The notes below the pieces were generated by a model that was not told where the DNA came from, searched no databases, and saw only the letters and a program-made list of their open reading frames with translations. A DNA stretch of 37,054 nt, taken from the IMG/VR virus record IMGVR_UViG_3300033555_000014, positions 1 to 37,054 of that record; one strand, written 5' to 3'. Numbering within the stretch: the stretch's first letter is position 1; each line of letters begins with the position of its first letter. The position numbers were made by a program, and so were the translations under genes. Positions 186-37,054 of the stretch are shown here, piece by piece. Source of the stretch: a virus.

Positions 186-2015
186 ATGGCGACACCATTT
201 CCTGCAGTCCAGGTAAGCCAAGCTTCATCACGCACAACAACCAACGACATTAACGTTGTGCGTTTTGGAGGCGGCTATGAACAGAGGGTGCCTATGGGCA
301 TCAACTACAAGCGTGACAAGTGGTCCGTTGTTTGGGACAAAATTACCTTGTCACAGAAAATCACAATCGAGAACTTCATCCAATCCGTCTCAAACGGGTC
401 TGTCATCACATGGCAATCACCTCTTGACACCGGTGAGAAGAGCTGGGTAATGGAAGGTGACTGGAACATCGCTGACACCGGCGGTAACCTCTACACAATT
501 CAACTGACCCTTCGCCAGGTCTTCGACTTGGGTGAATATTACGCGCCACCTCCAATTGACCCGGGCGAGCCTGGTGGCGGAACCACGTACGTACCAATGG
601 CTCTCCCATCTCCTGTGTTGGCATCATACTTTACGGGTTGGAAGCCGGCAATTGGTGGCCAACGTATTACTGCCATTCCTGCAGCATACAATCAAATTTA
701 CATCTTCCACGCTGTGCCAAACGGCTCATCTGGTGCATTTAAGTTTGAATACTATTCCGCGGTTACGGCTGATGAAATTGATGTAGCACACTCCAAAGGC
801 CAGCGCGTTGTTCTTTCTGTTGGTGGAGCTAATGCACGCTTCTACTTTGAGACACGCACACAGTCTCAAGCATTCTTGAACTCTTTCATTACCATCCGTA
901 ATGCATTGGGCGGCAAGATTGACGGCATCGACTTCAACACATTTGAACAGATGTCTTCACCTGCAACTGACGGTGGAGTCTACCCACCTCTTGCTGACGG
1001 TTCAGACAACCCTGCATGGGCAGCATGCATCACTGAAATGATTTGGATTGCTCAATCGCTGAAGAACCTTTACGGCCCAACATTTTCTGTATGTGCACCT
1101 CCGCACCCAGGTCGTTACTACGCCCCATTCGACTGGAAGCTGATGAAAGCAATGGTTGATGCAAATGTACTCGACTACGCAATCCCTCAGTATTACGATT
1201 CACCAGACTTCCTTACAGCTGCGGCAATTGAAGAGTACGTAAACATTTGGATTGCTCACCTTGGTGCATCGAAGGTTGGTATTGGTTTCGGTTCTAACTA
1301 CATAGCTGAACCTGGCCCAACATACACGGTTTCAACAGCTGTGGCACGACAAGTGTGGACAAATATTCGTCAATACAACCCGACATTGAAAGCTGCATTT
1401 GGTTTCTCTGCTCAACACGACTACGAAGCAACAACGCCTTGGTCATTTGGTACTGGTATGCGTGCAGAAATGGACTTGCCATATGTACCACCGCCAACAA
1501 TCTTCTCAACTGCATGGTTCTCGCCAACAGTAGGAGCAGGTGGCGGCTGGACTACACCTGGTGCAATTACTGCTTCTGATGACAGCCGAGCTACTCGTAC
1601 CTTGGCAACCGCAGGTGAAGGTGGTGCGCTGTTTGCATACAACTTCAGTGGAATTTCTGTGCCTGCAGGTGCAACCATCAAGGGTATTGAGGTTCGTATT
1701 GAGGGTTCGCAAACCGGAACACCGGACTACACGTACTGCTTCTTGACAACAGGCGAAACATACGGCCCAGGTCCGCGGTCAGTTGCTGCTAAAGGTATGC
1801 CACTGGTTGCTGCTGAAGGTGTCATCACTCTAGGTTCTACAAGTGATGTTTGGGGTGGTGTAAGTACAGCTGCTCCTTCGTCCTCAATGGAACGTGCATG
1901 GTCACCAGCTGACTTCAACTCTGCATTCTCAGTGTTGATGGCGTTTGCATCCAATGGAACGTCGCTCACAAACAGTATTGACCATGTGCAGGTTCGTATT
2001 TCCTACACGACGTAA
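186..2015 (+). CDS. M: Minor tail protein M (distal tail protein) homologue fused to a GH18 class-III-chitinase-like domain and a C-terminal beta-rich domain (609 aa)
   Basis: SD aaggaataacATG. The N-terminal ~110 aa (VRFGGGYEQRVPMGINYKRDKWSVVW...TIQLTLRQVF) aligns with lambda gpM (VRFGDGYSQRAPAGLN...). The middle part has hevamine-like motifs: RVVLSVGGANA, IDGIDFNTFEQ, FSVCAPPHPGRYY, LDYAIPQYYDS. Confidence 0.8.
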   Translation: MATPFPAVQVSQASSRTTTNDINVVRFGGGYEQRVPMGINYKRDKWSVVWDKITLSQKITIENFIQSVSNGSVITWQSPLDTGEKSWVMEGDWNIADTGGNLYTIQLTLRQVFDLGEYYAPPPIDPGEPGGGTTYVPMALPSPVLASYFTGWKPAIGGQRITAIPAAYNQIYIFHAVPNGSSGAFKFEYYSAVTADEIDVAHSKGQRVVLSVGGANARFYFETRTQSQAFLNSFITIRNALGGKIDGIDFNTFEQMSSPATDGGVYPPLADGSDNPAWAACITEMIWIAQSLKNLYGPTFSVCAPPHPGRYYAPFDWKLMKAMVDANVLDYAIPQYYDSPDFLTAAAIEEYVNIWIAHLGASKVGIGFGSNYIAEPGPTYTVSTAVARQVWTNIRQYNPTLKAAFGFSAQHDYEATTPWSFGTGMRAEMDLPYVPPPTIFSTAWFSPTVGAGGGWTTPGAITASDDSRATRTLATAGEGGALFAYNFSGISVPAGATIKGIEVRIEGSQTGTPDYTYCFLTTGETYGPGPRSVAAKGMPLVAAEGVITLGSTSDVWGGVSTAAPSSSMERAWSPADFNSAFSVLMAFASNGTSLTNSIDHVQVRISYTT

Positions 2016-2072: not shown

Positions 2073-2609
2073 ATGACAATTACCCAAGAACTCAAGAAGG
2101 CCACCGTTACCAGCCCCTACGTAGAAATGCTGTGGATTGATGGAACGACAGTAAATGCCGGTCTGAATTTCTACTTGACAAATTCCTCGGACTATGCTTT
2201 CAGTTTCAACGGCAAACAATATGTTCCGTTCCCTTACAAACTTGAGGGCATGGAAAGCACCACTGGTCAACCACCACGTCCTAAGCTCATCATTGCCAAT
2301 GTCAACAAGCTTATTCAACCGTACCTGCAACAATACCAGGATTTGAAGCGTGTTAAGGTTTCCCGCATTCGTACATTGGCCAAGCATCTCGATGGTGGTA
2401 CAGCAGCAGACCCAACAATGACGCTGCCAATTGACGAGTACTACATCAATGCAATGACCCTCATGGACCGTACATCAGTACAATTCGAACTCGCCAACAT
2501 ACTTGACATGCCTAATGTTATGCTTCCAGCTGCTCAGGCGTTGAAAGACAACCTTGGTACCAAAGACCTGTACGCACCTGGTTTGTCGTCTGTACGTTTC
2601 CGCGGCTAA
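2073..2609 (+). CDS. L: Minor tail protein L homologue (178 aa; lacks the C-terminal Cys cluster of lambda gpL)
   Basis: SD aaaggagtgcagcATG. VEMLWIDGTTVNAGLNFYLTN...FNGKQYVPFPYKLEGMESTTGQPPRPKLIIANV parallels lambda gpL VVLWEIDLTEVGGERYFFCN...WQGRQYQPYPIQGSGFELNGKGTSTRPTLTVSNL. Confidence 0.85.
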   Translation: MTITQELKKATVTSPYVEMLWIDGTTVNAGLNFYLTNSSDYAFSFNGKQYVPFPYKLEGMESTTGQPPRPKLIIANVNKLIQPYLQQYQDLKRVKVSRIRTLAKHLDGGTAADPTMTLPIDEYYINAMTLMDRTSVQFELANILDMPNVMLPAAQALKDNLGTKDLYAPGLSSVRFRG

Positions 2610-2610
2610 T

Positions 2611-3357
2611 ATGTTAGCTGAAAACTACATCCAAAATTGGGATGAGGTTGTCAAACATGTACTCGAATGCTACCCAAATGAAGCGGGTGGTATTGTAACA
2701 ACTGACAACATCTTCCACCCAATTGCAAACGTTTCTGAGACACCGCTTACTGGCTTCGAGTTTCATCCACGTGAGATGATTGAGAAAGATGTCAAGTGCA
2801 TTCTTCACTCGCACCCATACGACCCAAATGCCGCACCTGAAGATGACCCTCGGATTCCGTCCAAGTGTGACCTTGAAGGACAAATCAACACTGACATTGA
2901 GTGGGCGATTGTGGTAACAGAGGGAGAGAATGTAACCCCTCCTATTTTCTGGGGTGACTATGACCATCGACCAGACTTGTTCAACCGGGAATTTATTCAC
3001 TCTGTACAAGACTGCCTTGCTTTCATGTGTGACTGGCAGTACAAGGAATATGGTTTGAAGTTGCCAATGTTCCCAAGACACTTCGACTGGTTCCAAGAAG
3101 GTGAAGACCACATGGAACAACAGTATGAAGGTTGGGGTTTCAAAGATGTGTCTCATTTGCCACAAGAAAAAGGAGACGTAGTCTTCTACCGCATTCAAAG
3201 TCAAGTGGTAAATCACGTGGCAGTGGTAGCTGAACCCAATGTGGTTGTGCACCAACTGTACGGGCGGTTCCCTAAAACTGAACCTTATGAAGTATGGGCT
3301 AAATACATCGTAAAAAGAATTCGACATTCCTCTCATCCTAGTTTCAAAACTGCCTAA
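2611..3357 (+). CDS. K: Tail tip protein K homologue (JAB/MPN + NlpC/P60 domains, 248 aa)
   Basis: ATG at 2611 lies 1 nt after the L stop; the track ORF 2554.. starts earlier inside L. It has a JAMM-like HSHPYD...D motif, an NlpC/P60-like Cys (VQDCLAFMCDW) and a His (VVNHVAVV), in the same order as lambda gpK. Confidence 0.85.
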   Translation: MLAENYIQNWDEVVKHVLECYPNEAGGIVTTDNIFHPIANVSETPLTGFEFHPREMIEKDVKCILHSHPYDPNAAPEDDPRIPSKCDLEGQINTDIEWAIVVTEGENVTPPIFWGDYDHRPDLFNREFIHSVQDCLAFMCDWQYKEYGLKLPMFPRHFDWFQEGEDHMEQQYEGWGFKDVSHLPQEKGDVVFYRIQSQVVNHVAVVAEPNVVVHQLYGRFPKTEPYEVWAKYIVKRIRHSSHPSFKTA

Positions 3358-3417: not shown

Positions 3418-4068
3418 ATGCTAAGAACAATCCACCTAGTGGGCAAGTTGTCCCGCTTCAGCAAGAAACCAGTGCAAATTGATGCCGACACGACCCAAAT
3501 GGTCATGCAAGGTCTCATTGCCATGTTCGGCCCATCTTTTAAGCAGATGGTTCGCGAAGGCGAATGGCACGTCACCCGCAACAAGAAACCAAAAGAGTGC
3601 AAAACTCTCGATGACAGCATCGGTGAAGAAGAACTCGCATTCGGCCTCGGCAACACAATTGAAATCTGGTTTGCACCGGCGGTCAAAGCTCTGTCGGCTG
3701 TAGTTCGTATTGTGGTTGGTGTGGTGCTCATTGTTGCAGGTATTTTCTTCAAGATGCCATTCCTCGTCAAGATGGGTGCCATGCTGGTACTTGGTGGTGT
3801 CAGCGAACTGTTGGCTCCTAAACCATCTGTCGGGCAGCAATCTCAGTCTGGGCAAAACCCGTCCTTCCTCTTCAACGGCACAGTAAATGTTACTGAACAA
3901 GGTGGTCCTGTACCAATTGTTTATGGACGTGTACGCCGCGCATCCTCGCTGGTTCTCTCAGCAGGCATCTCAACAGAAAATATGACAGTTACAGACACTG
4001 CACGTGGTAACACAACTACACGCGGCGGTACATACAAGAACGGTCAAGACTTCGTCCTGGAAGTATAA
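3418..4068 (+). CDS. I: Tail assembly protein I homologue (216 aa)
   Basis: SD aaaaggagtagcattATG. It has an N-terminal ubiquitin-like segment and a hydrophobic Gly/Ala/Val stretch. LVLGGVSELLAPKP...NPSFLFNGTVNVTEQGGPVPIVYGRVR matches lambda gpI MVLGGVAQMLAPK...SSLDNMVAQGNVLPVLYGEMR. Confidence 0.85.
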   Translation: MLRTIHLVGKLSRFSKKPVQIDADTTQMVMQGLIAMFGPSFKQMVREGEWHVTRNKKPKECKTLDDSIGEEELAFGLGNTIEIWFAPAVKALSAVVRIVVGVVLIVAGIFFKMPFLVKMGAMLVLGGVSELLAPKPSVGQQSQSGQNPSFLFNGTVNVTEQGGPVPIVYGRVRRASSLVLSAGISTENMTVTDTARGNTTTRGGTYKNGQDFVLEV

Positions 4069-7000
4069 TGGAAATCAAAAACGAAAACATTGTAGCAGCT
4101 GGTGGTTGCTTCCCAGCTGGAACGAAAATCAACACACCAATCGGCTACCGTCTCATTGAAGACTTGAAAGCCGGTGATGAGGTGTTTGCATTTACACTGG
4201 CACCACTCGAAGCTGGTATGCCTGACGAACAGCCAGGTCGTACATTCACAAAGACGATTACTGAAACTTTCAAGCACACATTTGGCGAGGTTGGCTACAC
4301 ATCACCTCTGCTGGAAATTACCTACCACGGTATTGCAGAACACGGTGCAATCCATGACGGGTTGTTGCTGGTTACCGGTAACCACTACATTCTGACACCT
4401 TCTCGCCAGTCAGCTGAAACTGACCCTGGCTTTGCACGTGCTGATGAGTTGCAAGTTGGTGACAAGCTGTGGACAGAATATGGCGATGCAGTTGAAATCG
4501 TTGCAATTACCCCAGCAGGTGAGTACGACTTCGTCTACAACTTTGAAGTTGCTGACTTCTCTACCTACATTGCTAGTGGCATCCGTGTCCACAACGGTGG
4601 TAGTGGTAAGAAACAACGTACACCAGTGCAGGCTCCTAACTCGGTTCGTACCAAGCAAGTTATTCGTGCTCTCTTCTGCCCAGGCGAAGGTGAGAGTGGT
4701 GGTCTGTTTAACTCAACTGACATTGCACAATCGGTTTACTTCGATGGTACACCACTGAAGAACTCTGATGGAACATACAACTTCAACAACATTTCAGTTG
4801 AACAACGTGTAGGTCTGCCTGACCAATCCATCATCAATGGCTTCTCAGCTGTTGAAGGCGAAGTTTTACTCGGTCTGCCAATTACTGCAGCTACACCAGC
4901 AACTCGTACTGTTTCTTCTGGTGCAATCGACGCAGTTCGCATCACCATTGAATTCCCACAAGGTTTGCAGAAGATTGACAAGAAAACAGGCGACGCTAAC
5001 GGCGCAACTGTAAACTTCGTCATCCAACGCCGTGTTGTAAACGGCACTTGGGAAACTGTCATCAGCCCAATCGTAACGGAAATGAGTTCTGGCCCGTTCA
5101 CCGCAGCATTCCACATTGCTCGCCCTGCTTCTACTGGTCCATGGGAATTCCGTGTTCAGCGTACTACACCTGACACCACCGCAAACGAAATCATCGACGA
5201 CACAGTTCTTGACAGCTACACTGAAATTCAAGACGTTAAACTGCCGTACAACAACCGTAGTCTTGTTGCAATTACTGTAGGCGCAGACAGCACCAACGGC
5301 AAAATCCCGTCAGTTGCATTTGACTGGGTTGGTGTCAAGGTAAAAGTTCCATCAAACTACAATGCGACAACTCGTGTGTACACTGGTGCATGGAACGGAA
5401 CCTGGTCGACAACTCTAGTTTCGTCAGACAACCCTGCATGGGTCATCTACGACTTGCTGACACACACTCGTTACGGCCAGGGCGAGCGCTTCAAAGAAAG
5501 CCAGCTGGACAAGTGGTCGTTCTACGAAGCTGCAAAGTACTGTGACGAACTCGTAAACGACGGTAAAGGTACTGGTACATTTGAACCACGCTTCACATTC
5601 AACGCACAGTTGATGGTTCGTGAGAATGCATGGAAGACTCTGAACACCATCGCTGCGACGATGAACGCGAAGCTGTACATGCACGCTGGTTTCGTCCGCG
5701 TGGCTCAAGACCGCCCTGCCACTCCGACACGCATCATTGCAAATTCGAATGCTCTAGAAGGTTTGTTCTCGTACTCGTCATCGTCTGTTGATGAAACCTA
5801 CACGATGTGCAATGTCACATACAACGACCCACTTGACAACTTCCTGCCGAAGACTGTCAGCGAAGTAGCTGCGACTGCTGACTTGACGCGCTATGGACTC
5901 AGCTCCGTCGACCTGGCTGCATACGGTGCAACCACCGAAGGCCAAGCTCGCCGCGCTGCAAAATGGGTAATCGACACCTCGCTTCGTCAAACCAGCATGG
6001 TAAACTTTGGTGTTTCGCTGGAGAATGCTGCATTTGAGCCGAACGAAATCTTCTACCTGATGGACTCAGACTACTCGCAGACAACTCAGGAAGGTCGTCT
6101 GGCAAACATTGCCGGTACCTCGCTGACACTTGACAAGTCCATCAACAAGACTGGTACAGGTACTTGGACGATTACCGTCTACGCAGCTGATGGTAACACG
6201 ATGGAAACCCGCACGATTACATCTGCAAACGGTGTTTCTGCCAACATTACTGTCAACGCAGCAATTACATCTGTAAAGGGCGCAGTCTACATCATTACTG
6301 GTTCTGTGTCTCCGCGTCAGTTCCGTATGGTAGGCATGACAGACAACGGCGACCTAACATACACGGTCACTGCGCTTCAACACGACCCTAACAAGTATGC
6401 TCGCATTGAACAAGGCATCATTCTTCCGGATGATGTGTACTGGCAGCCACCTAGTCTCAACAGCGTTAATGTACCAACAGGTTTGGTCATTGAACCACAA
6501 AGCGCAATCAACGAAGACGGGCAAGTTTTCCGCTTCCTGAACCTTTCGTGGAACCCACCAGCAGATGGCACGGCTCAACGTTACACTGTTCAGTGGCGTC
6601 GTAACCTACAACCGTTTACTATTGAGACGGTCAAGGACCCATTTGCTCGTATTACCAGCGATTTCTCGGGCAGCTACCAGTTCTACATCAATGCAGTCAA
6701 CTCAGCAAACGTAGCTTCGCCTACATTGTCGGGAACATATGTGTTCGAGTTTACTGGTGTTGGCTCACCAGTTTCTGTGCTTGGCCCAGTGTCTGCGCTG
6801 CAAATTGCTGGCGGTGGTACAATCTGGGACGGCGGTATTATGCGCGTCCAGTGGTTGGCACCAACAGAGATTGCCGGTGCAACACTCAAGGATTACAAGG
6901 TAGAACTTCAGACTCCAGGTGGAGCCGTGTTCAAAACGTTCTACACGAATGATGTCGGCTTCGCATACACTTACGAACAGAACTTGGCTGATGGTGGTCC

Positions 7001-9407
7001 TCGTACAACGATTCGTGTGAATGTATACGCACGTGACACATTGAACCGCGTCTCAACACAGACAACTTCAACCTTCAGCAGCCAAGCACCACAGACTATT
7101 ACGAACCTTCAAGTTCGTGGTACTGGTGGAACTGTGTTCACAACTCTTGACCTCGATGTTGAATGGACTGCAAACACTGTTGGTGGCCAACCATGGAAGA
7201 ATGACCCGAACTTTGGTTACTTCAAGGTTGAGATTCTGAGTGGAACAACTGTTCGCCGTACTGACCAAGTGTACGACAACAACTATGTTTACACTTATGC
7301 TGACAACATCAAGGACAACGGGGCAGAAACACCGTTGACTTCCATCATTGTTCGCGTCAGTGTTGTAACCAAGGCTGGTCTTGCTGGGCCATCTGGTTCT
7401 GCGACATTCACACCTGCTGCACCCCCGCAACCAACTAATCTCCAACTTGTCGGTGGTGGAACCGCAATTTCAACTGAAGACATCAGTGTTGAATGGACCG
7501 CTCTGTCTAATGGCTCAGCATACCATACACTTGACCTGTTCAAGTTCTACAAAGTTGAAGTTCTTGTTGGCACCACTGTCATGCGCACTGTGAACGTAAC
7601 TGATGGTGCTCGCTACACCTACCGTTTCGATGACAATATGAAGGACAATGGTCTTGGAACTCCTTCAGGCAACATTACGATTCGTGTAACCACAGTAAGT
7701 AAGTTCGGTGTTTCAAGCGCTCCAACCAGCACACTATTCACGGTCAAAGTTCCACCAACCGTAACCAATCTGACAATGAAGGGTGGTGGGTCGACGTACG
7801 CAGGTGAAGACCTGGAAGTTGTCTGGGATTGTTTAGACGAGAACGGAAAGCAGTTCGAAACCTACACTGCGTTCAAACACTACCGTGTAATCGTTTACAA
7901 AGGTGCTGGAACTACACCTCTTCGTACAGAGCTGGTACGAGTGCGTAACTTTGTTTACAGTCTGGCAATGAACCAGATTGACAACGGCGGCACAGCTATG
8001 AACAACCCCACAATTGAGGTTGTTGGTGTTAACACATTTAATGTCATCGGTGCAGAAGCTCAAATCAACTTCTCCAACCCACCTCCGTCTGCACCAGTCA
8101 TCGACTGCGAAGCTGGTGTCGAGATGGTGTTTGTCGATGTTGTACCAAACACTGCTGACAAAGATGTAATCGGTATTGAAGTACATGTGTCACAAACCGC
8201 GGGGTTCACACCATCCGGTAATACTGCTGGTGTAGGCACTTGTGTTTACAAAGGTAACGGTACTAGCTACTCGTTCAAAGCAACGCCAGGCACCTACTAC
8301 GTTCGCGTGGCTTGCTACGACATGTTCAACACCACAGGTCTTAACTACTCTGCACAAGCCATTGTGGTTGTTGCCGCGCCAATTACGTCCACCGATTACG
8401 AATTCCTAGGCTTCACTTGGACACCTAACAGCCCTACAACTAATTCAATTGGTTGGACTTCTGGCACCGTTCAGAAACGTGCTGGTGCATCAGGTGTTGG
8501 TACAACTTGGAACGTAACTGCAGGTTCGGCTGCTTGGTCATCTGCGTCGCTATACATCTACTGGGATGCAAACGTAACACCTACGACTTTCAAGAGTACG
8601 ACTGACCTAGCCATTGCAACAGGTATTGACAAGCGCATAGTTGCTTTGTATAAAGGTGGAACACAGCTGTTCTCGACTGATGGTAACCGTTTGATTGATG
8701 CATCAACAACAATCATCCCTAACACCATCTCTGCACCATTGTTGGTGACAGGTGCAGCTGTAATTACTGGCACAGCACAGATTGCTGATTTGATTGTTAC
8801 CGACGCGAAACTTGCTAATCTGACTGTTACAGCTGCAAAAATTGCAAATGCCGCAATTACAAACGCGAAGATTGGTAATGCACAGATTGACACGCTGAAG
8901 TTGACAAATGGCGCGGTTAATGACATCAAAACTGTTGTTACCTACCCGTACAGCAACTATTACAACATTGGTTTTAACACCACGGACAACTACTCAGTAT
9001 ACAGTTCGCCTTGGGCTACACCAGCACCAGCGGGTCTGCCAGGACCATTTAAGCAAACTGTGCTTATTCAATTGTTGATGCCACGTGTTATTTTCTTCCA
9101 AACCATGTGCATCCATACAGTATTTGCTTATGTTGAGTTCTTTGATGGTGCTTCATGGTTCAGCGGCCCAGGGCTACGTGGTAACAAAACCGTGGTTAAC
9201 CCAGCAGCTACAAATGCAACATACACCTCTGGAAATGATGCAAATGAGTTCTACCAAATTACACATGACGCAACACCAGGAATGCAGTACCGTATTAGAT
9301 TTGACATTACGTTCCACCAAACTATGACATCCACACCGCCACCTTATACCACGTCGGCTCGCTTCGACCACACTAACACGGTCACTGCTATTACGCAGAT
9401 GAAATAA
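4068..9407 (+). CDS. J: Tail tip / host-specificity protein J homologue (1779 aa) with an N-terminal mini-Hint domain and expanded FN3-like repeats
   Basis: TAATG overlap with I. NPAWVIYDLLTHTRYGQGERFKESQLDKWSFYEAAKYCDELVNDGKGTGTFEPRFTFNAQL aligns with lambda J NMAWCLWDMLTHPRYGMGKRLGAADVDKWALYVIGQYCDQSVPDGFGGTEPRITCNAYL. Residues 14-176 carry intein blocks A, B, F and G. Confidence 0.9.
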   Translation: MEIKNENIVAAGGCFPAGTKINTPIGYRLIEDLKAGDEVFAFTLAPLEAGMPDEQPGRTFTKTITETFKHTFGEVGYTSPLLEITYHGIAEHGAIHDGLLLVTGNHYILTPSRQSAETDPGFARADELQVGDKLWTEYGDAVEIVAITPAGEYDFVYNFEVADFSTYIASGIRVHNGGSGKKQRTPVQAPNSVRTKQVIRALFCPGEGESGGLFNSTDIAQSVYFDGTPLKNSDGTYNFNNISVEQRVGLPDQSIINGFSAVEGEVLLGLPITAATPATRTVSSGAIDAVRITIEFPQGLQKIDKKTGDANGATVNFVIQRRVVNGTWETVISPIVTEMSSGPFTAAFHIARPASTGPWEFRVQRTTPDTTANEIIDDTVLDSYTEIQDVKLPYNNRSLVAITVGADSTNGKIPSVAFDWVGVKVKVPSNYNATTRVYTGAWNGTWSTTLVSSDNPAWVIYDLLTHTRYGQGERFKESQLDKWSFYEAAKYCDELVNDGKGTGTFEPRFTFNAQLMVRENAWKTLNTIAATMNAKLYMHAGFVRVAQDRPATPTRIIANSNALEGLFSYSSSSVDETYTMCNVTYNDPLDNFLPKTVSEVAATADLTRYGLSSVDLAAYGATTEGQARRAAKWVIDTSLRQTSMVNFGVSLENAAFEPNEIFYLMDSDYSQTTQEGRLANIAGTSLTLDKSINKTGTGTWTITVYAADGNTMETRTITSANGVSANITVNAAITSVKGAVYIITGSVSPRQFRMVGMTDNGDLTYTVTALQHDPNKYARIEQGIILPDDVYWQPPSLNSVNVPTGLVIEPQSAINEDGQVFRFLNLSWNPPADGTAQRYTVQWRRNLQPFTIETVKDPFARITSDFSGSYQFYINAVNSANVASPTLSGTYVFEFTGVGSPVSVLGPVSALQIAGGGTIWDGGIMRVQWLAPTEIAGATLKDYKVELQTPGGAVFKTFYTNDVGFAYTYEQNLADGGPRTTIRVNVYARDTLNRVSTQTTSTFSSQAPQTITNLQVRGTGGTVFTTLDLDVEWTANTVGGQPWKNDPNFGYFKVEILSGTTVRRTDQVYDNNYVYTYADNIKDNGAETPLTSIIVRVSVVTKAGLAGPSGSATFTPAAPPQPTNLQLVGGGTAISTEDISVEWTALSNGSAYHTLDLFKFYKVEVLVGTTVMRTVNVTDGARYTYRFDDNMKDNGLGTPSGNITIRVTTVSKFGVSSAPTSTLFTVKVPPTVTNLTMKGGGSTYAGEDLEVVWDCLDENGKQFETYTAFKHYRVIVYKGAGTTPLRTELVRVRNFVYSLAMNQIDNGGTAMNNPTIEVVGVNTFNVIGAEAQINFSNPPPSAPVIDCEAGVEMVFVDVVPNTADKDVIGIEVHVSQTAGFTPSGNTAGVGTCVYKGNGTSYSFKATPGTYYVRVACYDMFNTTGLNYSAQAIVVVAAPITSTDYEFLGFTWTPNSPTTNSIGWTSGTVQKRAGASGVGTTWNVTAGSAAWSSASLYIYWDANVTPTTFKSTTDLAIATGIDKRIVALYKGGTQLFSTDGNRLIDASTTIIPNTISAPLLVTGAAVITGTAQIADLIVTDAKLANLTVTAAKIANAAITNAKIGNAQIDTLKLTNGAVNDIKTVVTYPYSNYYNIGFNTTDNYSVYSSPWATPAPAGLPGPFKQTVLIQLLMPRVIFFQTMCIHTVFAYVEFFDGASWFSGPGLRGNKTVVNPAATNATYTSGNDANEFYQITHDATPGMQYRIRFDITFHQTMTSTPPPYTTSARFDHTNTVTAITQMK
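4107..4595 (+). other. Hint (intein / bacterial-intein-like) domain embedded in J, 163 aa, no endonuclease domain, +1 residue Gly
   Basis: Block A is CFPAGTKINTPIGYRLIEDLKAGDEV, block B (TxxH) is LLLVTGNHYILT, and blocks F/G are YDFVYNFEVADFSTYIASGIRVHN. The domain is followed by GGSGKKQRTP. Confidence 0.8.
6768..8085 (+). repeat. Four tandem ~110-aa FN3-like modules within J (units start near 6768, 7089, 7425 and 7751)
   Basis: A pattern recurs in each unit: P.T(I/V)TNLq(v/l).G(G)G...D(l/i).VeW............(F/Y)K(V/Y)E(I/V)l.GTTV.RT..V.d..YtY....N..DNG.......I.V. Confidence 0.75.
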
Positions 9408-9409
9408 AA

Positions 9410-9850
9410 ATGATTAATTACATCGTATTCATCACCGCAACAGGTGAAATTGTTACAAACATCTCAATGCTCGAGGAGGCTCTACTTGACACGGTCACTG
9501 CCAGCGTAACAGCTGGTCGTGATTACCTTGCTGTTGCAGGAAACAGGAACACACAATATGTCGTTACAGGTGTTGTAACAGCACGTCCTGCGTTGAGTGT
9601 TGTGGCTACTTGGTCAGCCACAACTATTGCTTCAGGAGTAACAGCCACACTTGGAACAACACTTCCAGTAGAAACAGTTGTTACAGTTGTTGCAAGCGGT
9701 GCAGTTCAATTGCTTGGAGGCCGAGGACACAGCGTTGTCTTTGTGAATGATGGTTCATTTGAGTTCTCATCGACTATTCCTGGCACATACACTGTTTCAG
9801 TGGAATGCTTCCCGTACCTTAACACCACTTACACAATCACGGTGACCTAA
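9410..9850 (+). CDS. Hypothetical tail-associated protein (146 aa)
   Basis: ATG lies 2 nt after the J stop, with a TAATG overlap onto the next gene. The composition is Thr/Val-rich and beta-type. I recognise no family motif. Confidence 0.6.
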   Translation: MINYIVFITATGEIVTNISMLEEALLDTVTASVTAGRDYLAVAGNRNTQYVVTGVVTARPALSVVATWSATTIASGVTATLGTTLPVETVVTVVASGAVQLLGGRGHSVVFVNDGSFEFSSTIPGTYTVSVECFPYLNTTYTITVT

Positions 9851-10626
9851 TGGCTTCTCTTAATCTAACACCAATTGCAGCTCCAGCAGTTACTGGTCTC
9901 TCAATCCAGACTGGTAACCATACAGCTAACTTGTTCTGGGATGAGCCAATTGACCCGGAAACAATGTTCGAGGTGTGGTCAAATACGACCAATGTCATCG
10001 GCACAGCCACAAAGCTAGCGTACACTGCATCCAACTCGTTCACACCAACTGGTTTGGTGGGTCAACGTTACTTCTGGGTCCGCTCGATGAACCGCTTCGG
10101 TGTGTTCGGTGTGTTCACAGCTTCTGTTGTGACCACTCTGCCAACTCTTACTGTTTCGCCGACTGCAGGTTCAGCTGTTGCTACACCTGTCATCCCAACG
10201 GTAGCGGTTTACAATACATGGTACTCAGTTGGAAGTATTGTTTGGACTGCAGCAGACACTGACATTATTACTTGTACTGGTTTCGTAACCACCGCGATTA
10301 CAAATGTCATGTCCGTGCTTACCGACCGCATTGTAGTCTTTGTCCGTTCACGGTTGTTCAATGTTACCACTGGTGCAGAGGTCTGGGCAGGTGTTCAAAC
10401 ACAACTCATCTACGACCGCCATGGAGCCACTGACTACGGTCCATTAAACAACGTAACATCTGAAAACGACACATTTATGGCTGGTTCTCCTGGTCTTCTT
10501 CGCCCTGGTACGCAATACCGTTGGACGATTGAAGTAAAAAAGCAGCAGGTCATAGGTACCCCAACACTGGATTTGACAGTTATTGATTCATCTTGCTTTG
10601 CAGACGCCGCAAGTGTGACCGCGTAA
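9850..10626 (+). CDS. Hypothetical tail protein with an N-terminal J-type FN3-like domain (258 aa)
   Basis: VTGLSIQTGNHTANLFWDEP...FEVWSNTTN...GQRYFWVRSMNRFGVFG resembles the FN3 module of J proteins (lambda: FEFWFSEKQ...YYFYIRSVNTVGKS). Confidence 0.6.
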   Translation: MASLNLTPIAAPAVTGLSIQTGNHTANLFWDEPIDPETMFEVWSNTTNVIGTATKLAYTASNSFTPTGLVGQRYFWVRSMNRFGVFGVFTASVVTTLPTLTVSPTAGSAVATPVIPTVAVYNTWYSVGSIVWTAADTDIITCTGFVTTAITNVMSVLTDRIVVFVRSRLFNVTTGAEVWAGVQTQLIYDRHGATDYGPLNNVTSENDTFMAGSPGLLRPGTQYRWTIEVKKQQVIGTPTLDLTVIDSSCFADAASVTA

Positions 10627-34796: not shown

Positions 34797-37054
34797 GCAG
34801 AATCATGAAATTGTCATTAATGTACGCGAACAGGGCTCACAAGGTGCCCGTCGCAACATTGATGAACTCAACGACAGCGCTAACCGCGCATCCCGTGGAG
34901 GTATTAGCGGGCTCTCAAACGCCACAAGCGAACTTGCTGACCGTATGGGCAATCTACCTGGTCCTCTAGGTAGTGCAGCGAGTGGTATTTCCGGAATGAT
35001 TTCCCAAGTCTCGTCTCTCACATCAGGTGTTGGCGGTGGTACAATTGCACTTGGCGGGCTTGCACTTGGACTAGCAGCTGCCGGTGTAGCCGCAGTGGTA
35101 ATGGGTGAACAAATAGCATTGGCTGCTGATGACGCTGCTGAGATGGCTGACAAGATGGGTGTAACTATTGAACGTCTTGAAGCCCTCAAGGTAATCGCAG
35201 AAGACAATTCAGGTTCTGCAGAAGGTTACGCAAAAACTCTCGAAAAAGTTGCAAAGTCAATGACAAAGATTGATGAGGACAGCCCTAAAGCCGCCAAGGC
35301 AATGGCATCCCTTGGTCTGTCGTTTGAAGAAATGCAACGTCTGAACCCTGACCAACAGTTGGCTGCAATAGTCAACGCCTATGAAAATCTTGGTCGTAGT
35401 CAAGAAGCTCTTGCAGGTGCAACTATGCTTGCCGGCGGCGGTTTCCGTGACCTGATTCCAATGGTAAAAGCTCTTGAAGAAGATGCAGGCGCTGCTACAG
35501 CACAATCAATTGAATTCGGCAATGTAATCGGCATTGACCTAGTTGAAATGGGTGCACGCGCTGAGAAAGCTAACCGCAAAGTTAGTGACGCTTGGGGTGG
35601 TTTGACAAAAGAATTCTCGAAGGGCTCAGCTGACCCTTGGATTCAGTTCAAGAGTGGTGCTGCCGACGCATTGAATTGGATTCGTACTGTCCTTGCAGCA
35701 TGGCGCGCGTCTAATGCAGAGATGAATGGCAAAGCACAACGCGGCGTTGACGGTGGTAAGGGCGGAACTATTGGTCTCATCGGTGGGTTTGCTGAAGGTG
35801 TGCGCAGCACACTGTATGGTGCTAAACCTCCTGAACCCGCGCCAACAATTAAAATCAATCGCAACAGCACACCTAGCGGTAAGTCTTGGGACGAAATCAA
35901 CCAAGAAAAGCTTGCTGCTAAAGAGAAAAAGAAGCTTGCGGATGCAGGCGAAGCAGAAATAAAGAAGCGTAAATCCGCCTCTGCAGGTGAATCTGCATCT
36001 CGTCGTGCTGCCTCGGCTCGTGACTCTGCTGCAAACAAAGCAGAATCTGAAGCTCTTCGTAAAGCAAAAGAATCTGAGCGTACTATTGCTCGCGAAATCG
36101 CTGACCAAGCACGCGAACAGATTCGCCTCGACAAGGAACGCACTCAGGAAATCGAACGCCAAGTTGAAGCAATGAAGCGTATTGGTGAACAGGGTGTTGG
36201 TCGTATTGCTGGAACAGCATCAGCAATGGCTAGCCAAGTTTCCTTCCAGCGCCGCTCTGTTGGTATGGGTGCAATTGACCGCGACTCTCTTTCCGGTACA
36301 GACAAAATTGGTGCTGATGCAGACCGTTCCCGCGCTGAACTTAACAGTAACTTCAATGATGGTGACCGTTTCGACTTTAGCCGCATTGTCGAGTACAACA
36401 AGCAGTTGGCTTCCATCAACGATGCTGAGCGCATGGCCACGGCTGTCATGGGCGAAGAGACCGAGAAGCGTAAAGCTTTCCAGGCTGACTGGACGAACGG
36501 CGCAAGTAACGCCATCGCAACCTACGTCGAGAGTGCAAACGACATGGCTGGTCAAATTAGCCAGCTCGGTGACAAGATGTTCAAGGGTATGGAAGATGCT
36601 CTCGTCTCCTTCGTAACCACCGGCAAGGCATCGTTCGCTGACTTCGCACGTTCGGTCATTGCAGACCTGGTCCGCATCATTGCAAAGAAAGCAATCGCTA
36701 ACCTTGCTGAATCTGCGGCTGGTATGTTCGGCTTCGCAAATGGCGGTGCATTCTCAGGTGGCACACAGTTCTTCGCAAATGGTGGTGTGGTAAATCGTGC
36801 TACAGGTTTTGGTATGTCAGGTGGCAAAATGGGTGTAATGGGCGAAGCTGGTCCAGAAGCAATCATGCCCCTGAAACGTGGCAGTGATGGTAAGCTGGGT
36901 GTTGCAATGTCTGGTGGTGGTGGAGGTGGTGGAAACAACTTCTCGCAAGTCAACAACATTACCATCCAGTCTTCTGGCGACGGAGACAGCGACAAGCAAC
37001 AAGCTGACATGGTTGCAGCTGCAATCGACAAGAAGTTCGCAGAAAACATGGCGC
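34789..37054 (+). CDS. H: Tape measure protein (771 aa in total; runs off the window end and finishes at 1..177)
   Basis: It is absent from the ORF track because it has no in-window stop. It starts with an ATGGCTGA overlap with the T frame and the SD ggaaggaaaataATG. I translated it by hand: MAEQNHEIVINVREQGSQGARRNIDELNDSANRASRGG..., with a hydrophobic GGGTIALGGLALGLAAAGVAAVV, a Lys/Glu/Arg coiled coil, and a lambda-H-like C-terminus (FANGGAFSGGTQFFANGGVVNRATGFGMSGGKMGVMGEAGPEAIMPLKRGSDGKLGV). Confidence 0.85.
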   Translation, partial: MAEQNHEIVINVREQGSQGARRNIDELNDSANRASRGGISGLSNATSELADRMGNLPGPLGSAASGISGMISQVSSLTSGVGGGTIALGGLALGLAAAGVAAVVMGEQIALAADDAAEMADKMGVTIERLEALKVIAEDNSGSAEGYAKTLEKVAKSMTKIDEDSPKAAKAMASLGLSFEEMQRLNPDQQLAAIVNAYENLGRSQEALAGATMLAGGGFRDLIPMVKALEEDAGAATAQSIEFGNVIGIDLVEMGARAEKANRKVSDAWGGLTKEFSKGSADPWIQFKSGAADALNWIRTVLAAWRASNAEMNGKAQRGVDGGKGGTIGLIGGFAEGVRSTLYGAKPPEPAPTIKINRNSTPSGKSWDEINQEKLAAKEKKKLADAGEAEIKKRKSASAGESASRRAASARDSAANKAESEALRKAKESERTIAREIADQAREQIRLDKERTQEIERQVEAMKRIGEQGVGRIAGTASAMASQVSFQRRSVGMGAIDRDSLSGTDKIGADADRSRAELNSNFNDGDRFDFSRIVEYNKQLASINDAERMATAVMGEETEKRKAFQADWTNGASNAIATYVESANDMAGQISQLGDKMFKGMEDALVSFVTTGKASFADFARSVIADLVRIIAKKAIANLAESAAGMFGFANGGAFSGGTQFFANGGVVNRATGFGMSGGKMGVMGEAGPEAIMPLKRGSDGKLGVAMSGGGGGGGNNFSQVNNITIQSSGDGDSDKQQADMVAAAIDKKFAENMA
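36928..37054. repeat. Terminal direct repeat copy 2 (identical to 1..127)
   Basis: Read directly; see copy 1. Confidence 0.95.

Follow-up and report, generated by a model that had tools for sequence, protein, structure and literature searches.

A J-type tail-tip or central fibre gene is encoded on IMG/VR virus record IMGVR_UViG_3300033555_000014, of which the full stretch of 37,054 nucleotides was analysed (the window), and a Hint domain is embedded near the extreme N-terminus of its translated protein product (Table 1). The J gene is translationally coupled to the gpI-like gene directly upstream by a TAATG at 4066-4070, with a one-base overlap with the stop codon, and follows homologues of M, L, K and I in the order typical of lambda. 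The body of the protein matches Pfam FNIII-A_GpJ (e-value: 1e-28) and Phage-tail_3, as well as the PHROG family 'central tail fiber J' (phrog_31; e-value: 2e-195), while positions 3-604 of the NCBIfam lambda_TipJ profile align with residues 178-785. The score against this 'exception' model (342 bits) falls below its strict cut-off (1950), suggesting that the window protein is a distant J. A megablast search with the J region against GenBank phages yielded zero matches and a tblastn search of GenBank phages with the Hint domain yielded three distant Ruminococcus phage matches, leaving no close or cultured relative, while the nearest DNA relative of the window J shares 56% amino acid identity, with synonymous sites saturated. 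Minus-strand open reading frames (ORFs) overlapping the J region were considered and set aside for want of support.

The J precursor starts MEIKNENIVAAGG/CFPAGTKINTPIGYRLIEDLKAGDEV..., where the slash marks the boundary between leader and Hint domain. The motifs from which the domain had been recognised in the initial annotation, namely Cys14, T103-G-N-H106, His175-Asn176 and Gly177 at +1, all occur where they had been placed, with blocks F and G reading EYDFVYNFEVADFSTYIASGIRVHN up to the closing His175-Asn176, and with Gly177 encoded by GGT (4596-4598). The profile searches, structure prediction and homologue alignment proposed along with that annotation were carried out, and returned a Hint-family match, a Hint fold and a defined insertion point. 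Residues 14-178 match Pfam PT-HINT (PF07591; e-value: 1.6e-11; Bitscore: 45; gathering score: 27.7) and Hint_2 (Bitscore: 32.3; gathering score: 28.4), and 2LWY, a bacterial intein-like (BIL) domain, is the sole non-J match below 1e-3 in a sequence search of the PDB (e-value: 1.8e-8). An AlphaFold2 model based on 12 homologues has a predicted local distance difference test score of about 84-98 over residues 11-175 and is disordered elsewhere. When this model was compared with the PDB using Foldseek, 2LWY again ranked first (e-value: 6.7e-11; template modelling score on the target: 0.81; 30% identity), followed by the Tetrahymena BUBL BIL2 domain and the mini-inteins Ssp DnaB, gp41-1 and Mtu RecA, with Hedgehog domains ranked lower. 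There were 54 PDB matches at an e-value ≤ 1e-3, the 50 listed consisting entirely of BIL, intein and Hedgehog domains. On sequence and predicted fold, residues 14-176 are a genuine Hint domain, nearest to the type A BIL and pretoxin-HINT branch, as had been proposed; at 163 amino acids the domain is too small to hold a homing endonuclease.

Both the clan profiles and the fold place the domain in the HINT superfamily. It shares with class 1 inteins the Cys1, the block-B TxxH and the terminal His-Asn, along with in-frame insertion relative to colinear insert-less homologues, but lacks their nucleophilic +1 residue (Cys/Ser/Thr). A His-Asn terminus without a +1 nucleophile defines the type A BILs (PMC4031507), to which the domain is nearer than to inteins or Hedgehog domains both by sequence and by structure. 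It also scores above the gathering score of the pretoxin-HINT model, but no toxin domain was found downstream in Pfam and PHROG scans of J, where the J hub, FNIII and fibre domains are located instead. The Hint is present as a single copy in the window.

Table 1. Features of the tail-tip module and Hint-bearing J gene of the window, and of further tail-related regions
Feature	Position	Strand	Remarks
gpM-like gene	186-2015	+	lambda-type tip module, upstream of J
gpL-like gene	2073-2609	+	lambda-type tip module
gpK-like gene	2554-3357	+	JAB+NlpC/P60; lambda-type tip module
gpI-like gene	3418-4068	+	lambda-type tip module, directly upstream of J
J-type tail-tip/central fibre gene	4068..9407	+	1779 codons plus stop
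N-extein	4068..4106	+	13-residue leader MEIKNENIVAAGG, native to J by sequence; motif hydrophobic-x-G/A-x-G-G
Left copy of direct repeat	4101..4106	+	GGTGGT, 6 bp of Gly codons, read directly
Hint domain	4107..4595	+	163 aa, residues 14-176; BIL type A / PT-HINT-like
Cys14	4107..4109	+	Hint position 1; predicted N-S acyl shift nucleophile
Block B	4374..4385	+	T103-G-N-H106 (TxxH)
Ser165	4560..4562	+	Hint position 152; block-F position
Block G	4590..4595	+	His175-Asn176; predicted Asn-cyclisation cut between 4595 and 4596
C-extein start	4596..4637	+	GGSGKKQRTPVQAP; +1 Gly, then conserved G-rich/K...TP.xAPN J start
Right copy of direct repeat	4596..4601	+	GGTGGT, 6 bp, read directly
258-aa ORF	9850-10626	+	just 3' of J
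C-terminal part of tape measure protein	36700-37053	+	runs off the window end
Seven-Gly run in tape measure fragment	36913-36933		AMSGGGGGGGNNF

The site at which the domain is inserted could be defined by comparison with J proteins that lack it. None of the 43 J homologues retrieved with the J body alone carries a Hint, and their N-termini follow the pattern M-x(3-25)-hydrophobic-x-G-x-G-G-(K)-G-G-G-G-x-x-TP-x-EAPN, as in MNNKNRAIVGEGGKGGGGGRTAQEGPNTLRS. Removal of residues 14-176 from the window J yields MEIKNENIVAAGG.GGSGKKQRTPVQAPNSVRT, which fits this pattern. In the PDB sequence search, the alignments of solved J-like proteins begin at their residues 6-10 and at window residues 172-176, and the start of the C-extein aligns with their residues 7-20. 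Taken together with the lambda_TipJ alignment, this indicates that the Hint has been inserted within the glycine motif rather than added as an N-terminal domain, in line with the original suggestion that it lies at the very N-terminus of a lambda-type J, where Gly is abundant. The 13-residue N-extein is, from its sequence, the native J leader. Leaders vary in length between 3 and 45 residues among J proteins, and a lambda-type J with a very short N-terminus (MSKGGGKGHTP...) exists. An internal start that would bypass the Hint was also considered for the window, and rejected since there is no in-frame ATG, GTG or TTG near 4596.

The Hint in J is no one-off element: at least 40 distinct J proteins carry it, it is also found in two or more further classes of virion protein, and it has co-diverged with J. 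An exhaustive search of 1.84 billion representative proteins with a profile of 13 Hint sequences returned 20,893 matches at an e-value ≤ 1e-3, including 76 at ≤ 1e-30. Among the best 150 of these 20,893 matches, which were inspected, are 16 J proteins with the Hint located at residues 4-34, one of which (P0060) is the window protein, represented by a single JGI/IMG + Logan contig. Scans of IMG/VR and GTDB genomes added 31 ORFs that encode a Hint together with a J body, giving at least 40 distinct full-length J-type copies, every one at the same site in J. Cys1 and the terminal His-Asn are conserved in 40/40 of these, and block B (T-x-N-H) in 37/40 by regular-expression count. The -1 residue is Gly in 36 copies and Ser in four, while +1 is Gly in 32, Lys in six, Ala in one and Thr in one, such that Gly or Lys occupies this position in 38 of the 40. 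When the gp38- and gp7-type copies described below are included, Cys1 is retained in all 83 phage-type copies, +1 is Gly (63), Lys (18), Ala (1) or Thr (1), small residues flank the domain at -1 and +1 (G/S/T and G/K) in 81/83, and a conserved Lys is found at +1 or +5 (GGGGK or KGGGK). The block-F His is present in 33/40 J-type and 43/43 gp38/gp7-type copies; the window has Ser165 in its place, which is the only Ser at this position among 16 copies aligned and is a possible modulator of C-terminal cleavage.

Every window J relative of at least 45% identity that was found carries the Hint, while it occurs in 2 of about 37 distant J proteins (24-39% identity), a rate drawn from a J-body-seeded locus scan with exact peptide patterns, which missed the closest relatives (L008 and L004) and represents a biased census. 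The N-exteins of the J-type Hints range from 'MKG' (P0199) to about 45 residues. In one set of genomes (L020-24, L030, L050 and L078) the native leader flanks the domain on either side (MSEQLKVIAGAGGGG/Hint/GGHRDRYPVIAGAGGGGGK...), and a similarly full, native-like leader follows the Hint in L080, L081, L083 and L175. No PHROGs tail family covers the domain, and the best BFVD match is a 'putative gp62' of an uncultured virus; public annotations leave these proteins nameless or list them as 'predicted phage tail protein' or as 'Pretoxin HINT domain/Phage tail fibre adhesin Gp38'.

Several variants of the J-type arrangement were observed. The motif VIAG(A/S)GGGG is doubled around the Hint in L020-L024, L030, L050 and L078 (about 4001-4800 of each), with the two copies in a genome co-varying (A/A or S/S) in five of six cases and sharing about 85% identity at the DNA level, as in the 23-24 of 27 nucleotides of L022. 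This co-variation and likeness suggest either that the target was duplicated when the Hint was inserted or that gene conversion has taken place, and the doubled leader forms a repeat usable for precise deletion of the Hint. Two tandem N-terminal Hints precede J in P0058 and L026/27 (GGGGG/Hint/GGGGGGKGG/Hint/GGGGGK...). A compact Hint of 112 amino acids with an internal deletion is found on the J of L055 (ORF from 3929); Cys1, TANH and AHN are kept, while the block-F His has been lost (PYPTF), indicating that this His is not strictly required. In L010, L013 and L017 the Hint module begins at a GTG (L010 ORF start near 3905) and an intact J frame follows it as an in-frame fusion, with J's own Met 17 residues after the Hint (..VHN/GGDNGESFELSSKDIPT-MGSKGGGKGG..), and two forms of J, one with the Hint and one lacking it, might as such be produced in these genomes.

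The same Hint is also found in other virion proteins. Ejection proteins of the P22 gp7 type (P0002-4) have the arrangement MGGG/Hint/GGGGKK..., and one Hint-bearing gp7 homologue is encoded between the head and the ejection genes of a P22-like podovirus contig. P22 gp7 itself (NC_002371) reads MLYAFTLGRKLRGEEPSYPE/KGGKGGADKSAK..., with the OpdA cut annotated in the P22 record and the mature protein beginning KGGKG..., an N-terminus that has been reported (PMC8402733); the C-terminal bond of the Hint aligns at most two residues from this cut. In Gp38-like adhesins, comprising about 35 clusters of proteins of roughly 430 amino acids on contigs of up to 143 kb, the Hint is internal (...GGGGGGGGYSSTTST/Hint/GGGGGGGKGTTTTTYAGGGGGGG...). 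Cys1 and His-Asn are invariant in the 40 Gp38-type copies, with +1 being Gly in 28 and Lys in 12. P0238, a homologue of 272 aa (52% identity) without the Hint, can be aligned colinearly to either side of the insertion, as far as the conserved C-terminal AGYYI-GNS-VTW, and as the Hint interrupts a single Gp38 domain, both of its ends must react for a native-like product to be formed. When four Gp38-like proteins were rescanned with Pfam after excision of the Hint, the GP38 match extended no more than a few residues past the junction in two, the Gly-rich C-terminal half being of too low complexity. Gly_rich_2 and PA14/GLEYA/LamG adhesin-like proteins host the same Hint as well.

Among the latter are the giant adhesin-like proteins P0094 (2343 aa) and P0111 (1622 aa), with PA14/GLEYA/LamG domains, in which the Hint lies about 70-200 residues from the C-terminus and is followed by Gly-rich sequence (VHN/GGGGGD.. 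and VHN/NGGID..). Arrays of three to seven head-to-tail Hints, separated only by 'VHN/KGG(G)/CF', make up a large protein class that was encountered both among the profile matches (P0067, P0080-82, P0088, P0090, P0095-96, P0099, P0102, P0104, P0107-108 and P0110) and in the genome scans (L079, L085, L100, L103, L130 and L150). A signal-like N-terminus ending in ...A(R/W)GGGG precedes these arrays and a Gly/Ser/His-rich tail follows them, and they are found in metagenome-assembled genomes assigned to Saccharibacteria, Planctomycetota, Victivallales and other phyla.

The history of the element was considered by comparing the pairwise identities of the Hint with those of the first 600 J-body residues in 12 full-length J-type proteins. 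The paired values (for example 70/65, 58/58, 55/53, 44/43, 35/35 and 33/31%) follow one another, with a mean identity of 47% for the Hint and 41% for the J body and a Mantel r of 0.74, a value reached by 1/5000 permutations. In a neighbour-joining tree of the Hints, constructed without support values, the J-type Hints are basal with one additional crown clade, those of gp7 type form a coherent clade of their own, and those of Gp38 type fall in one broad clade, mixed with other adhesin-type hosts. As Hint identity tracks J-body identity, the element appears to be old and vertically inherited, and the simplest reading of these sequence comparisons would be an old insertion maintained by vertical inheritance under purifying selection, with a few transfers from one virion gene to another and repeated precise loss. 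Recent horizontal acquisition was also considered; this co-divergence speaks against it, as do the GC content of the Hint and that of its third codon positions (0.489 and 0.460), which match the values for the remainder of J (0.484 and 0.462).

Further observations were made in the remainder of the window. The JAB/MPN-type and NlpC/P60 domains of the gpK-like protein, with e-values of about 8e-6 each, form the combination typical of lambda gpK; the listed TTG start of its gene overlaps the gpL-like gene by 56 nucleotides, and the true start is probably located further downstream. The 258-aa ORF weakly matches the middle part of 'central tail fiber J' (phrog_31; e-value: 3.7e-7) as well as tail fibre families, and may represent a separate fibre or receptor-binding module. 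At the 3' end of the window, a fragment of a tape measure protein (PHROG e-value: 1e-17) includes a run of seven Gly residues with no Hint in it, a type of site at which the Hint is found in other virion proteins. The window spans the 37,054-bp contig in full, which makes it probable that the genome is permuted or incomplete at this point.

We suggest, with slightly better than even confidence, that the mini-Hint removes itself from the J precursor post-translationally and that C-terminal cleavage is the essential step. The Hint would fold and Cys14 would attack the Gly13 carbonyl in an N-S acyl shift assisted by Thr103 and His106 of block B, forming a thioester. Asn176 would then cyclise with the help of His175, breaking the Asn176-Gly177 bond, such that the freed J would start GGSGKKQRTP... 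in lambda-like manner and be positioned next to gpL in the tip, while the thioester would be hydrolysed and the leader and Hint discarded. As a minority or competing route, the α-amine of Gly177 could attack the thioester and re-join the 13-residue leader. Type A BILs, with a C-terminal His-Asn and no +1 nucleophile, give mainly cleavage products (PMC4031507, PMC7664689). The presence of the leader on both sides of the Hint in some lineages is in agreement with this, as cleavage there would yield a native-like J and splicing a doubled leader, while the location of the gp7-type copies at a known site of proteolytic maturation also favours C-terminal cleavage for J. Furthermore, since lambda-type J proteins work with very short N-termini, GGSGKKQRTP... 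is a plausible mature end. Of the self-removing N-terminal domain originally envisaged, the function stands as the most economical one in view of the leader following the Hint in sub-lineages and the gp7 parallel, but the cleavage itself, like the dominant product, we infer from sequence, and for Hint-bearing phage J proteins at large self-removal is a prediction drawn from sequence and model.

Three observations weigh against self-removal by cleavage. The Ser165 of the window copy, replacing the block-F His, could slow Asn cyclisation or alter its control. Strict conservation of Cys1 and block B extends even to copies whose N-extein is just 'MKG', although both would be superfluous for pure C-terminal cleavage, and the thioester may have a role of its own; this argument is a weak one, since both ends are also kept by pretoxin-HINT domains, for which release of a toxin is enough. 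In the window clade, finally, the leader motif is found only upstream of the Hint, and a cleaved J would thus be without a leader.

Self-removal would also be compatible with the element serving no purpose for the phage. As a purely selfish, endonuclease-less passenger it would persist because its imprecise loss would destroy J and because it takes itself out of the protein. Its minority status in distant J proteins, its occurrence in virion genes that are unrelated, invariably at repeats of Gly codons able to mediate recombination, the tandem duplicates and the little effect of deleting the P22 gp7 propeptide are all consistent with such a passenger. It is, however, fixed in all the close relatives of the window J that were found, has co-diverged with J although direct repeats (6 bp in the window and about 27 bp in L021/L022) should permit precise deletion, and forms a clade of its own in each host class, pointing to rare transfers. 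We consider the absence of any benefit doubtful, though it deserves serious consideration.

A further alternative concerns the product. The initial annotation held splicing to be chemically excluded by the Gly at +1, which is correct for canonical trans-esterification but not for splicing as such, as type A BILs without a +1 nucleophile have been documented to splice by an N-S acyl shift and Asn cyclisation, followed by attack of the C-flank amine on the thioester (PMC4031507). Were the Gly177 α-amine to attack the Gly13-Cys14 thioester efficiently, mature J would be MEIKNENIVAAGG-GGSGKKQRTP..., with NENIVAAGGGGSGK as the expected junction peptide, and the flanking Gly residues would be an adaptation for fast aminolysis, to which the small -1 and +1 residues of nearly all copies would be suited. 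This product matches Hint-less J N-termini such as MNNKNRAIVGEGGKGGGGGRT..., and the hydrophobic-x-G-x-G-G leader motif is conserved in the N-exteins however far Hint-bearing J proteins have diverged, as are Cys1 and block B despite the tiny size of some N-exteins. The Gp38-type proteins furthermore need removal of the Hint at both ends, and ligation would restore the native chain to which P0238 is colinear, with the junction ...YSSTTSTGGGGGGGK, although a nicked Gp38 loop might still function. Against this, cleavage products dominate in characterised BILs, a non-native doubled leader would result in the duplicated-leader and internal-Met lineages, ligation has no evident value for the gp7-type (MGGG/) and short-leader J (MKG/) copies, and the Lys at +1 in 18/83 copies is not obviously favourable to it. 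Efficient splicing is regarded as unlikely, although it is the principal alternative to cleavage. A bolder form of this idea, in which the Hints constitute a Gly-adapted class that ligates via the α-amine of a +1 Gly or Lys, colonises poly-Gly motifs of virion proteins and acts as a conditional maturation switch, we put forward as a quite unlikely proposal. It would imply that tip, ejection or adhesin proteins are held inactive until the Hint fires, and would represent the first protein splicing in the host-recognition machinery of phages as well as a natural tool for traceless Gly-Gly ligation.

The Hint might instead be retained on virion J as an N-terminal appendage with a structural or binding role, its motifs being kept for folding. 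The Gly runs could provide flexible linkage, the block-F His is missing from the window copy, and J tolerates leaders of variable length. The retention of catalytic residues in 40/40 J-type copies, down to about 31% J identity, is however a signature of selection on activity. A retained Hint would also be held close to an interface: the published model of the T1 J homologue begins no earlier than residue 13 (PMC11945409), and window residue 176 lies opposite residue 10 in the alignment with the 1172-aa chain 9l9p_S, which we infer from its equal length to be T1 gp33, such that ordered J would start about 3-4 residues past the Hint and the domain would be tethered at the gpL/gpJ composite domain between subunits. 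Its presence in a Gly sandwich loop of Gp38 and at the gp7 maturation site would likewise be hard to square with function, and retention is considered improbable. Intermolecular thioester chemistry of the Hedgehog or BUBL BIL2 kind, in which the Gly13 acyl group would pass to a tail protein, lipid or host surface component, is considered highly improbable, for although BUBL BIL2 ranks second among the structural matches and makes isopeptide bonds by Lys amine attack on its thioester (PMC8616854), and Cys1 and a Lys at +1 or +5 are conserved here, only the N-extein (13 residues in the window, MKG or MGGG in relatives) would be moved while J itself stayed unlinked, and the gene context suggests no partner. 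The thioester of several relatives would carry an N-extein of only 3-7 residues, which weakens the covalent link proposed in the initial annotation, and both this and its idea of an assembly checkpoint are speculation.

The known maturation cleavages in phage tail and ejection proteins are performed by phage or host proteases, or by C-terminal intramolecular chaperone domains. Hint-catalysed N-terminal maturation of a tail-tip protein, as the self-removal we favour would entail, would add a self-contained route to these, and in the P22-like ejection proteins the Hint appears to replace the OpdA-dependent step. No published account of a Hint or an intein was found for J, gp7 or Gp38-type proteins in a literature search whose full-text cover of subscription journals was thin; relative to the literature found, the host proteins J, gp7 and Gp38-type adhesins, the Gly-run insertion site, the near-exclusive Gly or Lys at +1 and the long co-divergence with J are new. 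The range of BIL and pretoxin-HINT domains is thereby widened from bacterial surface and toxin proteins to phage virion proteins, with a preference for Gly runs and a long co-divergence with one gene that are unlike the usual mobile intein. Should the copies with +1 Gly splice, interest would extend to practical use, as small ligation domains independent of a nucleophile. In annotation, J gene models including a Hint are to be expected, and the mature N-terminus should be predicted accordingly.

Of the known systems, the Clostridium thermocellum BIL domain (2LWY) is the closest, sharing the N-terminal Cys, block-B TxxH, His-Asn, lack of a +1 nucleophile and mini size. It resides in a bacterial secreted or variable protein rather than a phage virion protein, whereas the window-type Hints have Gly-run flanks and an almost constant Gly or Lys at +1, and have co-diverged with their host at one site. 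Their activity is predicted, while N- and C-terminal cleavage and some aminolytic splicing have been reported for type A BILs (PMC4031507). The pretoxin-HINT domains (PF07591) provide the best Pfam model, and RHS/PT-HINT proteins (P0013 and P0014) are detectable homologues; the logic of an autoproteolytic release of the C-terminal part would also be shared, this being a toxin there and, as proposed, mature J here. In J, however, a structural protein of 1600 residues follows the Hint, which is N-terminal rather than near the C-terminus, and the +1 residue of pretoxin-HINT domains is Gln and others instead of Gly or Lys. With the 20-residue propeptide of P22 gp7, the Hint of P0002-4 shares its location and the exposure of a similar GG(K)GG N-terminus, but the propeptide is cut in trans by the host OpdA where autocatalysis is proposed here, and the parallel is with a sister Hint and not with the window J. 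Phage mini-inteins (gp41-1, DnaB and terminase) share the fold, blocks A, B, F and G and in-frame insertion with colinear insert-less homologues, but differ in their +1 Cys, Ser or Thr, which is represented by one Thr in the 83 window-type copies, and in being inserted in conserved catalytic motifs of DNA-metabolism or packaging enzymes rather than in a disordered Gly linker of a tail or adhesin protein. The thioester of the Tetrahymena BUBL BIL2 domain (6Y75/6TMM), the second-best structural match, is resolved by an amine (PMC8616854), as the aminolytic route would have it here; in that eukaryotic polyubiquitin, however, a whole Ubl is transferred, whereas the N-extein of the window J consists of a short leader only.

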